From positions 32,001 through 96,000 of the forward strand of contig CAVVMW010000021.1 in NCBI GenBank assembly GCA_963749495.1: a DNA stretch of 64,000 nucleotides, given 5' to 3'. Shown one piece after another: positions 24,001 to 31,947 of this stretch; within the stretch, counting starts at the first letter, position 1, and each line of letters opens with the position of its first letter. A program made the position numbers. Origin of the DNA: an uncultured bacterium (lineage in GTDB: Bacteria > Verrucomicrobiota > Verrucomicrobiia > Limisphaerales > UBA8199).

Positions 24001-27000
24001 TGCCAGGGCATGACCGTGGACCAGGCCGCCCAATTCTTCCAGGACAATTGCTATTACCAGCCAAAACCCTCGCGCGCCGAGGCCGTGCGCGGCACCTTCG
24101 ACCCCGAATACCTCTATTACACGCTGGGCAAGATGGAACTGCTCAAGCTGCGCGACGACTGCCGCAAACAGGAGGGCGCGGGCTTCACGCTCCAAAAATT
24201 CCACGACGAACTCCTGCGCCACGGCGCGCCCCCGGTCCGCTTGCTGAGGGAAATCATGCTCAAAGACAGAGCCGCGTGGGACCAGGCCATCGAATAGTGC
24301 GGAGTGCGGAGTGCGGAATGCGGAATCCTTCGGAGGAAGGGAGACGGAGGGTGGAGGGCGGAATGACGAATGACGAATGACGAATGACGAATGACGAATG
24401 AGCCCGCAGTCAGTAGTCAGTAGCTAGAGCCTGTCCCCAAAGCCCCGCGAGTGGGGGACCTTTGTCGCAGCCTTTGTCGAAACCTTTGTCGGATTGGCCC
24501 TTTTTCGACAAAGGCGCCGACAAAGGCTGCGACAAAGGTTCGGAACCAGGGCTTTTGGGACAGGCTCCAGCCACTGACTCCCTCGGTTTTTTTATTGTTG
24601 ACAAGCGCGGCCTTCATATTGGACACTTGTTCAGTATGAAGGAACTGACGAAGAGACAACGCCAGGTCCTGGAGTTCATCCAGGACCGCCAGGATGCAGC
24701 GGGCCTCGTTCCGACCTACCGCGAGATAGCCGCGCATTTCGGTTTCAACAGTCCGAACGCAGTGCTGGCGCACGTCAAGGCCCTGCAGAGCAAGGGGTTT
24801 TTGAAAAACCAGCCGGGCCGCGCCCGGACTTTCCAGGTGATGAATCCCAGCGCGCCGAGGCACCGGTTGCGGCCGCGCATCCTCTCGGTGCCCATCTACG
24901 GCACCATCCCTGCCGGTGTCCCGATCGAGGCCGTCCAGGAAGACGAGGGGTGCGTGCTGATCGACGTGGAGACGCTGGGGATTCGGCCGAGCGCCCGCAC
25001 CTTTGGCTTGAAGGTCCGGGGCGATTCCATGCTCGGCAAGAACATCGTGGACGGCGACATCGCCATCATCGAGCATGGCCTGGCGCCGCGTCCCGGCGAC
25101 GTGGTGGCCGCGCTCATCAACGGGCAGGTCACGCTCAAGACTTTTGTCGTGCAGCGGGGCAAGGCATTTTTGCGCGCGGAAAATCCCCGCTATTCGAACC
25201 TGGTCCCCCAGGAAGAACTGCAAGTCCAGGGCGTTATGGTGGCCCTGGTGCGCAGGCGGAAAGGCTAAAGGCTGAAGGCTAAAGGCTAAAGGTGAGGGAC
25301 GAATGACAAATGACAAATGACAAATGACGAATGACGAATGACGAAGGGGGGCCGAGCAGGGAAGGGCGCGAAGCGTTTTGGACTGGCGCAGTCCAAAACC
25401 TGGCGGCCTGGATACCGAGTGCCGACGGGCGCCGCCTCGTCTCCGCTTCGTCATTCGTCATTTGTCATTCGTCATTCGTCATTCGACCCTCGTCTCTCGA
25501 CCCTCGGCCCTCTTCGCCATGACGGAATCTCGACAGCGGGCCAGAGCGATCGTGCATCTGGATGCGGATGCGTTTTTCGCCTCGGTAGAGCAGGCGGCGG
25601 ACGCGCGGCTGCGCGGCAGGCCCGTGGCTGTGGGGGGCGACAAGCGCGGCATCATTGCCTCGGCCTCCTACGAGGCGCGCAAGTTTGGCATTTACACGCC
25701 CATGCCCACCGCCCTGGCGCGCCGGCTCTGCCCCAGGCTGGTGCTCCTGCCGGGCGACTTCGACAAGTATGAGCTCTTTTCGCGGCTGATGTTTTCGTAT
25801 GCCTACGATTTCACGCCGGACGTGGAGATCGGCTCGATTGACGAGGGATATTTCGATTTGACGGGGTCGCGGCGGCCGGCGCTGAGCATTGCCGAGACGA
25901 TCCGGCAGGCGATCCGGCAGGCGCTCCGGCTGTCGGTCAGCGAGGGCATCGCTGCCAACAAACTGGTCAGCCAGATCGCCTCGAAGCTGAACAAACCCGC
26001 GGCGTTTCAATTCGTGCCGGGCGGGCAGGAGGGGCAATTTTTGGCGCCGCTGGCCAACCAATGGCTGCCGGGAATCGGCCCCCGGACGGCGGCGCAGTTG
26101 AATGCGGCCGGCCTGGCGCGCATCGGCCAGGTCGCCTGCACGCCGCTGGACCTGCTGGGGTTGCTGGTGGGCAACCAGGCGCCGCAGTTGCACCGCTTTG
26201 CCTTGGGCCAGGATGAGCGGCCGGTCATCCCGGCGCGCGCCCCGGCCAAGTCCTACGGCCAACAGGAGACCTTTGCGGCGGACACCACCGACCAAGAGTT
26301 CCTGGAGGCGGCCTTGCAGCGGATGGCGGACCACCTCATGGCCAAAGTGCGCGCGGACGGCAAGAGCATCCGCACCCTCACGGTCAAGGTCCGCTACAAC
26401 GACATGGACGAGGAGCAGGCGAGCGAGAGCCTGGCCGAGCCCACGGACCTGGAAACCGAAATCTATACCCGCGTCATCCTGCTCCTGCGCCGGGCCTGGA
26501 AACGCCGGGTCAGCCTCCGCCTGGTCTCGCTCAAGCTGGACAATGTCTATGACGGCCCTTTCCGGAGCGGGCTGGCCCTGGACACCGCCGCCCGCCGCCA
26601 CGACGCCCAGCAGCGCCTGGCCGGCGCAGTCGATCAGTTACGCGAAAAATATGGCCGCAGCGCCCTCCTCCGGGGACACGACTTCGTCTTAGCCGAGTCA
26701 GTCCACAGTCCAGAGTCCACAGTCCACAGTCCACAGTCCGGAAGCCGGAACGCGGAGGACGGAAGACGGAGGACGGAAGACGGAGGGCGGAAGACGGAAT
26801 GCGGACTCCGGACTCGGGAATTTGAGATCTCGGATCTGAAATCTGATATCCGGACTGTGGACTGTGGACTGTGGACTGTGGACCGTGGACTGACTCTGGA
26901 CTGTGGACTACCCCTGAACGTCCACAGTTATTATTCGTTTCTGGATTCCACGCTTTCGATCCGGGCGGTGGTGGATTGGGCCAAACGGCACGAGCTGCCG

Positions 27001-30000: not shown

Positions 30001-31947
30001 TTCCCCGCGAGCGGCCATCCGCTGGAGTTGTTTCCCGATGTGGCCTGGGACACCTATTGTCCCGTCTGCCGGCTCGGCCAGCACGTGGGCCAGCAGGTGG
30101 TCACTTGCGGCCTGGTCATCGAGCAGCGCCTCTTTCACCAGACCACCGGCGAGCCGATGAAGTTCCTGACCCTGGCCGATTGGACCGGCATGGTGGAGAC
30201 CGAACTCTTCGCCCGCACCTACCGCTCCTACGGCCTGAACACGATCCGCTACCGCGTCCTGGAAATCTCGGCCACAGTCGAGCCGTTTGAAAACGGGCGC
30301 GGCTATACCCTGCGCGTGCTCCGGGCGGGCAAGGCGAGGGGGAGGGAATGCGGAGTGCGGAGTGCGGAGTGCGGAGTGCGGAATCCTTCGGAAGGAGGGA
30401 GACGGGGAACGAATGACGAATGACGAATGACGAATGCGGGGTGCAGACTCCGGACTCTGGAATTTGAGATCCGGGATCTGAAATCTGATATCCGGACTGT
30501 GGACTGTGGACTGTGGACTGTGGACCGCCCCGCCGTCCGACTTTCGGCTTGCGCAGCGCCGGATTAACGGCTTTGCTATCGCGCCATCAGGCACAACTTA
30601 TGAAACAGCTCAACGTCGGACTCATCGGCTGCGGCTTCATGGGCCGCACGCACTCCAACGCCTATCGCAAAGTCAATAACTTCTTCGACCTCGAATACCA
30701 TCCCGTCCTCAAAGCGGTCTGCGATATCGAGGAGCCCAAGGTCAAGGCCTTTGCGGCCCGGTGGGGCTACGAATCCCACGAAACCGATTGGCGCAAGCTG
30801 GTCACACGCCCGGACATCAACCTGGTGGACATCCCGGCCCCGAACGACCTGCACAAGGACATCGCGATCGCGGCGGCCAAGGCCGGCAAGATGATCCTGT
30901 GCGAGAAACCGCTGGCCAGGAACGGCCCCGAGGCCCTGAAAATGGTCGAGGCGGTCGAAAAGGCCGGCGTGCCCAACTTCGTCTCGTTCAATTACAGGCG
31001 CATCCCCGCCGTGACGCTGGCCAAGCAACTTATCGATGAGGGCCGGCTGGGGCGCATCTTCCATTACCGGGCGAAGTTCCTGCAGGACTGGACGATCTCG
31101 AAAGACCTCCCACAGGGAGGCACGGCGCTTTGGCGGCTGGATGTCAAGGTGGCCGGGAGCGGCGTGACGGGCGATTTGCTGGCGCATTGCATCGATACGG
31201 CCCTGTGGCTCAACGGCCCCATCGAGAAGGTCAACGCGATGACCGAGACCTTCATCAAGGAACGGATGCACACGCTGACAGGCAAGGTGGAGAAGGTGGG
31301 CATCGATGATGCCTGCGCGTTCCTGGCCCGGTTCAAGAACGGCTCGCTCGCCACCTTCGAAGCCACCCGCTACGCCCGAGGCCACAAGGCCCTCTACACC
31401 TTCGAGATCAACGGCGAGCACGCCTCCATCTTCTGGGACCTCCACGACCTCCACCGCCTCCAGTATTTCGACCACCGCGACGAGGGCCGCGTCCGGGGCT
31501 GGCGCAACATTCATGTCACCGATGGCGACCATCCCTACATGGGCAAGTGGTGGGTGCCCGGGCTGCAAATCGGCTACGAGCACAGTTTCGTACACCAGGT
31601 CGCCGACTTCCTCGAGGGCCTAGCCACGGGCAAACCCGCCAGCCCCACCTTCCGCGAGGCGCTCCAAACTCAATACGTCTGCGACGCCGTCCTCAAGTCC
31701 GCCAAGACCGCCCGGTGGGAGAAGGTCAAAAGCAGTCAATAGTTCAATAGTTCGATATTTCGATGTTTTGAGTAGCCAAAACCGGCCGTATCGGTTATCC
31801 TCGTGCGGTTCACGAGTCTGAGTCTGACTCGATTCGATTGCAGGATGCATGAAACGGCTAAGTTACAAGCCCGGAGGCGCGGGGGCGGATTCCAATCCCT
31901 TTGCCCACCTTGGTCGGGCCGCCCGGCGCTGGGCTTTTACCCTGATC

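Follow-up and report, generated by a model that had tools for sequence, protein, structure and literature searches.

A LexA-linked open frame joins a Pol IV-type and a DnaE-type DNA polymerase in one predicted polypeptide of Verrucomicrobiota

The window (the whole 64-kb stretch of DNA analysed) was found to encode a polypeptide in which a Pol IV-type (DinB) domain is joined to a DnaE-type C-family polymerase, its gene lying 250 bp downstream of lexA on the same strand (Table 1). We propose, with a probability of roughly two in three, that the two genes constitute an operon, lexA followed by polY::dnaE, which LexA represses and DNA damage induces, and that the product is a single-chain error-prone polymerase of the PolY-DnaE2B-RecA type that bypasses lesions in two steps. 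Judged from the related sequences, many Verrucomicrobiota of soil and fresh water, a large group, have kept the fusion.

Table 1. Features of the lexA-polymerase locus (window coordinates; residues are those of the fused protein)
Feature	Position	Strand	Basis
Candidate LexA (SOS) box, TATTGGACACTTGTTCAGTA	24617..24636		Last base is the A of the lexA ATG
lexA, 210 aa	24636..25268	+	TIGR00498, 153.4 bits (cut-off 110.95); Pfam LexA_DNA_bind and Peptidase_S24
Hairpin element filling the lexA-polymerase spacer, arms (GACGAAT)n / (ATTCGTC)n	25255..25525		TRF arrays; RNA fold
Fused PolY(DinB)-DnaE-type polymerase gene, 1634 aa	25519..30423	+	One open frame; domain matches
Y-family polymerase core and little finger, residues 1-343	25519..26547	+	IMS and IMS_C; HLDADAFF 13-20, SIDE 106-109
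Candidate beta-clamp-binding hexapeptide RSGLAL, residues 349-354	26563..26580	+	Directly past the little finger
RecA-N-terminus-like (RecA-NT) motif, residues 359-391	26593..26691	+	Conservation; RecA complex model
Inter-domain linker with in-frame hairpin element: (CAGTCCA)n, (CGGAAGA)n, core, (GGACTGT)n	26690..26915	+	TRF
Short DnaE-type C-family polymerase, residues 465-1607	26911..30339	+	Pfam; NCBIfam
In-frame composite repeat element, palm/fingers boundary	28588..28773	+	TRF
In-frame composite repeat element directly upstream of the clamp motif	29694..29900	+	TRF; repeat comparison
Beta-clamp-binding motif of the DnaE half, SLWLF (family consensus QLWL[LF])	29896..29910	+	Conservation
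Reverse-orientation repeat element over the last codons, stop, and downstream spacer	30345..30525		TRF; families D5, D7, I1, I2

The initial annotation had described one polypeptide directly downstream of lexA with the catalytic motifs of both polymerase parts kept, and these statements were borne out. The stop-to-stop frame runs from 25378 to 30423 on the forward strand, with the ATG of the fused protein at 25519. The Pfam matches listed earlier were reproduced with the same domain set: IMS (PF00817; residues 14-156, 1.9e-42, 145 bits), IMS_C (PF11799; 244-343, 74 bits), PHP (466-565), DNA_pol3_alpha (750-1009, 1.7e-64), finger (1086-1224), and HHH_6 (1297-1381). In addition to HLDADAFF, the motifs SIDEGY (106-111), PDIDVDF (851-857), and KMDILAQGG (1004-1012) were located. 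When 44 relatives (63-81% identity to the window's protein) were aligned, the catalytic D, D, and S-I-D-E of the DinB half and the D-x-D and third D of the DnaE half were found to be invariant in every one.

From its sequence, the Y-family half appears to be an intact, apparently working Pol IV-type polymerase. Its IMS palm/fingers and little-finger domains were detected at family score, the NCBI Pol IV model NF002677 was passed marginally (257.4 bits; cut-off 256), and the best match among solved structures was a Pol IV (7yll, E 1.4e-54). The catalytic carboxylates, which we take to correspond to E. coli D8, D103, and E104, are intact; thus the loss of catalytic residues that marks ImuB is not present in this protein or its 44 relatives. 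Alignment of the region past the RecA-NT-like motif revealed only a variable linker with no conserved columns and gave no sign of an ImuB-C domain. The hexapeptide RSGLAL, presumably a relative of the QLxLxL type of clamp motif, is a candidate for clamp binding on the DinB side: the usual Q is absent, and L352 and L354 (positions 341 and 343 of P0003) are conserved in 44 and 42 of the 44 relatives, respectively.

The RecA-NT-like motif resembles the N-terminal helix of the genome's own RecA and has seven positions (A, L, D, G, R, H, and D) that are invariant in 44/44 relatives. Because this conserved motif is present, RecA is likely to be a third component of the fused polymerase system. A complex modelled with the genome's own RecA gave an ipSAE of 0.70 (best control, 0.00), a mark attained by 116 of 157 solved complexes but by only 2 of 215 mismatched pairs. 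The modelled interface comprised residues 349-382 of P0003 (360-393 of the window's protein), with at least 60% of contacts shared between runs and a partner pLDDT of at least 57; the model may owe its score to memorised RecA filament structures, in which the N-terminal helix is packed against the adjacent protomer. In B. subtilis, no interaction of PolY2 with RecA was detected, as reported in PMC13335488. The motif following the DinB domain had been overlooked in the initial annotation.

The DnaE half, likewise apparently intact, comprises a degenerate PHP domain, palm (PDIDVD 851-856 and KMD 1004-1006), fingers, HhH, and OB domains. PHP motif I reads N-V-H (canonical H-x-H) and motif III reads T-D-R (canonical T-D-H). 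No tau-binding C-terminal domain was found in this half, and its BLASTP alignment with the genome's own DnaE1 stops at residue 1110 of the 1254 in DnaE1. The QLWL[LF] clamp motif is well represented in the 44 relatives (Q in 41, W in 33, L in 39, and L/F in 39). The earlier designation of this part as DnaE2-type did not hold at the level of the NCBI model: NF004225 (DnaE2) scored 478.5 bits against a cut-off of 939, the DnaE1 model scored higher (608), and canonical DnaE2 genes of the same phylum reached 1077-1186 bits on NF004225. In the tree, the fused C-parts formed one clade (SH-aLRT 100) within a separate clade of DnaE-type polymerases of about 1000 aa, and the 14-row clade (100) that holds them stood apart from canonical DnaE2 and DnaE1. 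The bit scores and the separate clade rule out a canonical DnaE2/ImuC. In the wide sense of DnaE2, the C-part co-occurs with DnaE1 (the genome's one dnaE1 is on contig C12), lacks a tau-binding domain, has a degenerate PHP, and keeps the D-D-D residues. The label DnaE2B is applied to it by association, the tree setting it apart only from canonical DnaE2 and DnaE1.

The genome itself (11.37 Mb, 88% complete) was searched for other components. No ImuB-type IMS match and no ImuA-type match were found in it, consistent with the previous report that imuA and imuB are absent; the same models detected ImuB in 2/2 verrucomicrobial genomes with canonical DnaE2 and a second, ImuA-like match in 3/5 such genomes. 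Stand-alone DinB genes, also noted before, were confirmed as two full dinB copies, accompanied by one truncated copy and two fragments.

The candidate LexA box has one mismatch to TACTG-N10-CAGTA and is the sole site with at most one mismatch in the window. Of 62 regions upstream of lexA, 34 hold the same palindrome (≤1 mismatch), compared with 0.25 expected from shuffles. Among 61 related loci, 59 have a lexA gene upstream in the same orientation, and in 44 of these 59 the spacer to the polymerase gene is ≤100 bp. The fused gene is thus a predicted member of the SOS (LexA) regulon, the predicted box providing the operator.

Relatives of the fused protein were numerous. Among 8000 scored candidates of 898-2860 aa, 1337 homologous proteins were recovered at E ≤ 1e-3, matching the initial count, and the best 120 of the 1337 (69-100% identity) all carried both the IMS and the pol III alpha Pfam sets. 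Of 41 genomes from the same order, this one counted, 25 have open frames of at least 1389 aa and 32 contain a DinB of the same clade (≥58% identity); the stand-alone DinBs share only 31-40%. Fused-form records were labelled Limisphaerales (12), Pedosphaerales (1), and Verrucomicrobiales (4). Of the best 80 genome loci, 70 were labelled Verrucomicrobiota, the others including Klebsiella and Bifidobacterium at the same identity; labels outside the phylum look like mislabelled bins. The occurrence in Acidobacteriota, Methylomirabilota, and Limnocylindrales put forward earlier is given by record labels only and is doubtful. Split polY and dnaE neighbours occur in sister lineages: in genome G045, dnaE directly follows a polY 58% identical to the fused DinB and is among the tree rows nearest to the fused C-parts, and in G044 the neighbouring polY is 51% identical and the dnaE is another member of that 14-row clade.

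Among known systems, the DnaE2B-PolY-RecA module (Timinskas & Venclovas NAR 2019; Timinskas et al. NAR 2026) comes closest. In the available parts of these surveys (PMC12926913, PMC6511836), DnaE2B is described from genomes without ImuA/ImuB as linked to an active PolY with a RecA-NT motif, often with lexA in the operon, and is exemplified in Bacteroidetes (Cellulophaga algicola). The window has the same combination, an active-type PolY with RecA-NT linked to a DnaE2-like polymerase and no ImuA/ImuB found; however, the module as excerpted consists of separate genes and subunits, whereas here there is one polypeptide, in Verrucomicrobiota. The initial annotation had instead read the protein as a DinB replacing ImuB in the ImuA-ImuB-DnaE2 cassette, which is not the right comparison because the C-part is not a canonical DnaE2/ImuC. 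The cassette (Proteobacteria, Actinobacteria) does share an SOS-linked Y-family protein and a non-replicative DnaE paralogue with no tau-binding domain and no active PHP, but its ImuB is catalytically dead with an ImuB-C domain and its ImuA is required, while in the window the Y-family part is intact, neither ImuA nor ImuB was found, and the tree places the C-part outside canonical verrucomicrobial DnaE2. A Y-family polymerase with a C-terminal RecA-NT motif, under LexA control, is likewise a feature of E. coli Pol V Mut (UmuD'2C-RecA-ATP) and of the proposed PolY-RecA complexes; unlike Pol V Mut, the fused protein has no UmuD-like subunit and has a second polymerase attached. A two-step "bipartite" bypass has been proposed for B. 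subtilis, in which, according to the portion of PMC13335488 available, PolY1 or PolY2 inserts and a second, non-proofreading polymerase (PolA) extends; those are separate proteins with an A-family partner, whereas the link here is covalent and the partner C-family. The claim that the two-polymerase form is new stood in part: no paper describing a PolY-DnaE fusion was found, and the main texts of the bacterial polymerase surveys contain no fusion of this kind ("fusion" and "fused" occur zero times in the part of the 2026 supplement covered), but the PolY(active)-DnaE2B-RecA association was already published and one NCBI record carries the name "fused DNA polymerase IV/DNA polymerase III subunit alpha." The new element is the covalent joining of the two polymerases.

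In the proposed mechanism, DNA damage would lead to LexA cleavage and expression of the operon, and the clamp motif(s), together with RecA attached at the RecA-NT motif, would recruit the chain to a blocked 3′ end, much as in the proposed PolY-RecA complexes and in Pol V Mut. Insertion opposite the lesion would fall to the Y-family active site, and the tethered DnaE-type polymerase, with no active PHP site, would extend the distorted primer until the replicase returns. In this inserter/extender scheme, the covalent link would stand in for the subunit contacts, by ImuB-C or otherwise, found in multi-subunit mutasomes. The initial suggestion that two polymerases act on one clamp is a conjecture; the QLWL[LF] motif of the DnaE half is conserved, but the motif on the DinB side is a candidate only.

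Other readings were weighed against this scheme. The Y-family half could serve mainly as an ImuB-like tether making clamp and RecA contacts, with the mutagenic synthesis done by the DnaE half and the Y-family catalytic residues kept for a separate role. This has precedent in ImuA-ImuB-DnaE2, where, in the parts of the sources available, synthesis is left to DnaE2 and the Y-family protein serves as a catalytically inactive adaptor (PMC3919608, PMC6511836), and both the RecA-NT and candidate clamp motifs do lie on the Y-family half; we consider it unlikely, as the invariant D, D, and S-I-D-E, the 58-88% identity of the DinB domain across the order, and a score above the NCBI Pol IV equivalog cut-off speak for a polymerase, a conservation unlike the relaxed pattern that the available text of PMC6511836 describes for inactive PolYs. 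Rather than clamp-bound stalled forks, the chain might act on strand-invasion intermediates or gaps to which RecA filaments recruit it, in D-loop extension or gap filling. Such recombination-associated synthesis would fit the strong conservation of the RecA-NT-like motif and the favourable RecA model, and Caulobacter DnaE2 acts in non-replicating cells with excision repair (PMC8102061, as excerpted). The conserved QLWL[LF] motif in the DnaE half argues against it, and RecA-NT motifs are also read as lesion-bypass activators, as in Pol V (PMC12926913, in the part available); we hold this role to be rather improbable.

Two further readings concern the chain itself. Internal initiation, proteolysis within the disordered linker, or RNA cleavage at the linker hairpin could yield two separate proteins, in which case the fusion would be a neutral consequence of reading through what was once an intergenic spacer. 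In favour of this, the linker varies strongly and, in this copy, is built of intergenic-type repeat elements, split forms exist in G045 and G044, and of eight short relatives inspected (seven on contigs of 22-188 kb), six end 14-55 residues past the RecA-NT motif. The PolY/DnaE junction was nevertheless found in a stop-free single frame in 69/69 related loci holding both parts. Because this frame has been kept despite linker turnover, and because the inserts of this copy are in frame, selection for read-through is indicated, and we regard two separate working proteins as very improbable. Breaks do occur in some relatives (a stop within DinB in 2/69 loci, breaks within the DnaE part in 4/69), and one same-genus genome, G003, has a frameshift. 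An assembly or gene-calling artefact joining two genes had been a stated concern, given a long-read assembly with repeat arrays in the linker; the frame is likewise single in 69/69 independent assemblies, whose linkers are unrelated, as well as in two genomes of the same genus, which answers the concern and leaves an artefact a negligible chance.

To our knowledge, it is very unusual for one chain to carry active DNA polymerase domains from two different families, and Y-family/DnaE2-type cooperation is known mostly through genetics and structure prediction. The conserved fusion gives independent evolutionary support for the predicted PolY-DnaE2B contact and, as a one-gene construct, lends itself to biochemical and cryo-EM work on how the primer is handed off, RecA is activated, and the clamp is used. 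It also implies that SOS mutagenesis in a large, mostly uncultured soil and freshwater lineage differs from the textbook ImuABC or Pol V. A bolder reading, which we hold tentatively and at somewhat under even odds, is that the protein is a natural single-chain inserter-extender in which two catalytic polymerases (Y- and C-family) hand over the primer end within one RecA- and clamp-guided polypeptide; that the fusion would be Rosetta-stone proof of PolY and a DnaE2-like polymerase as a physical unit; and that the gene would be among the genome's densest targets of translated heptamer-hairpin elements, such elements thus being able to remodel polymerase loops without destroying the enzyme. If true, it would provide a one-gene system for studying polymerase switching.

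Repeat and hairpin elements were found at several points in this copy of the locus. The spacer and linker hairpins had RNA folds of -140.3 kcal/mol (z -9.3) and -132.7 kcal/mol (z -11.9), respectively, and could affect co-transcription or mRNA integrity. The linker differs in length and sequence among relatives, and in this copy it is made of the same repeat elements as the intergenic DNA, with the reading frame preserved. The element upstream of the clamp motif pairs with 30409-30525 as a 117-nt inverted repeat of 95% complementarity (I1). The element at the palm/fingers boundary shares 92% identity with a copy at 29755-29900; this site is a length hot spot, with an insert of at least 15 aa in 32/44 relatives, and the insert content varies between same-genus genomes.

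The fused gene of the window was found to encode a single polypeptide with the domain order listed in the table, in which a Y-family polymerase (DinB part) precedes a DnaE-type C-family polymerase (C-part). The N-terminal third passed the NCBI Pol IV equivalog model NF002677 marginally (257.4 bits against a cut-off of 256), and its top match among solved structures was Pol IV (7yll, E-value 1.4e-54). Every catalytic motif named in the initial annotation was located; moreover, when 44 full-length relatives (63 to 81% identity to the window's protein) were aligned, the Y-family D-x-D and S-I-D-E motifs, the C-family P-D-I-D-x-D motif and the third Asp (K-M-D) were invariant.

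Features of the fused gene and its surroundings (window positions, unless given as residues)
Feature	Position	Strand or molecule	Basis or remark
Open frame	25378-30423	+	ATG at 25519, 1,634 aa
IMS	residues 14-156	fused protein	Pfam
IMS_C	residues 244-343	fused protein	Pfam
PHP	residues 466-565	fused protein	Pfam
DNA_pol3_alpha	residues 750-1009	fused protein	Pfam
Finger domain	residues 1086-1224	fused protein	Pfam
HHH_6	residues 1297-1381	fused protein	Pfam
lexA	24636-25268	+	TIGR00498, 153 bits
Predicted SOS box	24617-24636		one mismatch
DUF885 protein	22516-24297		neighbour
GFO/IDH/MocA oxidoreductase	30513-31742		neighbour
N-terminal methylation-motif protein	31849-32733		neighbour
Tandem-heptamer hot spot	22262-30525		units AATGACG, ACAGTCC, ACTCCGC, AAAGGCT
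Composite element copies	28588-28733, 29755-29900	+	near-identical peptides from both
Composite element copies	26790-26892, 30409-30525, 24298-24400	-	repeat comparison
Inverted repeat	29756-29872 / 30409-30525		117 nt, 95% complementary

The homologue count first reported was re-obtained (1,337 proteins at E ≤ 1e-3 from 8,000 scored candidates of 898 to 2,860 aa), and all of the 120 best carried both the IMS and pol III alpha domain sets. Among GTDB species genomes, a relative was encoded in 445 of 467 pattern stretches. Both halves were present in 69 of the best 80 loci, and in all 69 the DinB-DnaE junction lay in one frame, with a stop within the DinB part in two and breaks within the DnaE part in four. 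The inter-domain linkers were wholly different from relative to relative, and thus the fusion is independent of this assembly; an assembly artefact joining two genes was rejected in view of the one-frame junctions together with the unrelated linkers. In a same-genus genome (L107, G003 C12:84000-91000) the fused gene is frameshifted at about residue 1196, which reflects a gene that is broken or an error of assembly. No RNA sequencing run is listed as containing this sequence, and the best DNA run shares 0.11 of sampled words.

Within the window's order (41 genomes, its own counted in), an open frame of at least 1,389 aa was detected in 25 genomes and the DinB clade of the fused gene (at least 58% identity) in 32, with the stand-alone DinBs just 31 to 40% identical. 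An even sample of the phylum gave a match at E ≤ 1e-80 in only 30 of 301 genomes, the majority being stand-alone PolYs of one family (44 to 49% identity), so the fused form appears concentrated in this order and a few neighbouring families. By record title, 70 of the best 80 loci are from Verrucomicrobiota, with the order given as Limisphaerales in 12, Verrucomicrobiales in 4 and Pedosphaerales in 1. Loci of equal identity labelled Klebsiella, Bifidobacterium, Cyanophyceae, Saccharimonadales, Terriglobia or Acidoferrum are read as probably mislabelled bins.

The gene upstream of the fused gene is lexA. This arrangement, on the same strand, was observed in 59 of the 61 loci with enough upstream DNA, at a distance of no more than 100 bp in 44. 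A palindrome overlapping the lexA start codon, TACTG-N10-CAGTA, was found with at most one mismatch in 34 of 62 upstream regions compared with 0.25 expected from shuffles, and the predicted SOS box of the window is the sole such site in its 64 kb. Several of the boxes contain TGTTC-N4-GAACA, which we take to be the published Verrucomicrobia LexA motif. No LexA box was found in the spacer between lexA and the polymerase gene of the window. The three neighbours listed in the table are not repair-related.

Residues 359 to 391 (RRHDAQQRLAGAVDQLREKYGRSALLRGHDFVL) were among the best conserved segments of the fused protein, with A, L, D, G, R, H and D unchanged across all 44 relatives, and were found to resemble the N-terminal helix of the organism's own RecA. 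By sequence, this segment is the RecA-NT motif of Timinskas and Venclovas, described from PolYs that replace ImuB (PMC6511836). RecA is a putative third partner, which the initial annotation had overlooked. Complex prediction with the own RecA and residues 326 to 395 of the aligned family gave a score of 0.70 (best control 0.00), a level attained by 116 of the 157 complexes of solved structure and by 2 of the 215 mismatched pairs; contacts agreed by at least 60% among runs, partner pLDDT was at least 57, and the modelled interface fell exactly on the motif. This pass may reflect the predictor's memory of RecA filament contacts, and it demonstrates likeness rather than binding. With respect to the clamp, a predicted motif in the DnaE half, QLWL[LF], was kept in the family (SLWLF in this copy), and a candidate xxxLAL motif follows the little finger of the DinB part.

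The C-part had been described as DnaE2-type, a label that NCBI model NF004225 for DnaE2 does not bear out (478.5 bits against a cut-off of 939), and the DnaE1 model likewise gave 608 bits against a cut-off of 1,002. Among 1.84 billion representatives, the unfused proteins closest to it are of about 1,000 aa (44 to 55% identity) and also fall below both cut-offs, their matches stopping at positions 1039 to 1068 of the 1,146-position DnaE1 profile. Since the alignment of the C-part to the own DnaE1 (1,254 aa) stops at DnaE1 residue 1110, the C-part lacks the tau-binding end. A PDB search matched only DnaE1-type chains and no DnaE2 structure. In a quick IQ-TREE analysis (LG+G4, 46 rows, 1,022 columns), from which locus L096 was left out (its longest ORF was spurious and formed a long branch in an earlier tree), the fused C-parts formed one clade (SH-aLRT 100) nested in a 14-row clade (100) of short polymerases, separate from DnaE1 and from five canonical verrucomicrobial DnaE2 genes (1,147 to 1,178 bits). 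The latter references were collected by a phylum search with the DnaE2 model at E ≤ 1e-150, a cut-off that excludes the fused type (the own genome was unmatched); a search of plasmids for named DnaE2B references gave matches of 27 to 31% identity only, which were left out of the tree.

Two split forms have their dnaE inside the short-polymerase clade: (i) in G045, a 507-aa polY ORF (58% identical to the fused DinB) followed by an overlapping 1,049-aa dnaE ORF in another frame; and (ii) in G044, a 407-aa polY (51% identical) followed by dnaE (P0253). In addition, six of eight short relatives inspected end 14 to 55 residues past the RecA-NT motif, and seven of the eight lie on contigs of 22 to 188 kb. 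Because of these split forms and short relatives, the most likely origin of the fusion is a polY-dnaE operon, with occasional re-splitting afterwards. The overlap in G045, a 100% complete genome, covers about 140 nt in different frames (L106, C1:258000-269500, positions 7083-7224) and could be a genuine split, a linker frameshift or a programmed frameshift.

Consistent with the reported lack of imuA and imuB, neither gene was detected by IMS and ImuA profile searches of the own genome (88% complete). Of the six IMS hits, two are full dinB genes, one is the fusion, one is a truncated dinB and two are fragments; the two pol III alpha hits are dnaE1 and the fusion, and RecA was the sole match to the ImuA model. 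As positive controls, the IMS model detected ImuB beside dnaE2 in both verrucomicrobial genomes examined with canonical DnaE2, and the ImuA model gave a second, ImuA-like match in three of five such genomes. An ImuA search of 40 relatives at E ≤ 1e-15 was uninformative, as the controls too gave zero matches. The truncated IMS hit on contig C24 was rejected as ImuB, since it is a shortened dinB in which the DMD and SIDE motifs are intact. This locus (L004, C24:273298-276615), in which dinB is cut after about 106 profile positions and borders an oppositely oriented 486-aa ORF, resembles a third dinB that has been disrupted.

In two surveys (PMC6511836, PMC12926913), DnaE2B denotes the DnaE2s of genomes without ImuA/ImuB, whose linked PolYs, active or inactive, carry RecA-NT motifs, and an active-active PolY-DnaE2B pair is known in Bacteroidetes. 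Judged by its associations, the fused gene is probably a PolY-DnaE2B-RecA module in a single chain; whereas the partners are separate genes in the surveys, here they form one polypeptide. The claim that the fusion is new stands in part: a search of the main texts of three polymerase surveys did not find it, but the architecture is already registered in database annotation, since one relative (P0217) bears the NCBI name 'fused DNA polymerase IV/DNA polymerase III subunit alpha' and JGI protein names give both activities. Full-text literature searches returned no paper on the fusion. In the examined portion of the PMC12926913 supplement, 'fusion' and 'fused' do not occur, and every Verrucomicrobia row present in the C_family sheet is a DnaE1.

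With the architecture, conservation and operon of the fused gene as observed, the favoured reading is an SOS-induced two-step bypass guided by RecA and the clamp, in which the Y-family site would insert opposite the lesion and the tethered DnaE-type polymerase would extend. We infer this division of labour by analogy with Pol V, ImuABC and bipartite PolY-PolA, the last being a B. subtilis scheme outlined in PMC13335488. Rival explanations are that the Y-family half acts as an adaptor, that the protein serves recombination-associated synthesis, or that the two halves are separated. Proofreading by PHP is unlikely because its metal-binding motifs are substituted across the fused family (N-V-H in motif I and T-D-[KRT] in motif III), as judged against canonical contexts in supplement rows of PMC12926913.

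This copy of the gene lies in a hot spot of tandem heptamers. The window holds 27 period-7 arrays, 21 of them between 22.2 and 30.6 kb and 8 inside the ORF; genome-wide there are 1,085 (mean 0.94 per 10-kb bin, 99th percentile 7, maximum 11), and the two bins with the fused locus hold 11 and 9. Long hairpins with heptamer arms make up the lexA-polymerase spacer (-140 kcal/mol, z -9.3) and the inter-domain linker (-133 kcal/mol, z -11.9). Two later in-ORF elements do not fold into hairpins on their own (z -1.9 and -1.4) and proved to be composite-element copies pairing with others at a distance. In this composite element, of about 117 to 146 nt, (CAGTCCA)n is followed by a ~50-nt core containing a small palindrome and then by (CATTCGT)n. 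The gene and its surroundings hold five copies, three of which lie within the ORF and are translated in frame. The inverted repeat formed by two copies brackets the last ~180 codons, a span that encodes the C-terminal OB domain and includes the stop codon, and would form a very long duplex in the mRNA. As the insert sites are length hot spots of the whole fused family and insert content varies among same-genus genomes, the inserts appear to be recent, tolerated loop insertions. The own dnaE1 (C12, ~380000-387500) also seems to carry in-frame repeat elements, its residues 305 to 419 being 39 to 59% identical to the repeat-derived inserts of the fused gene.
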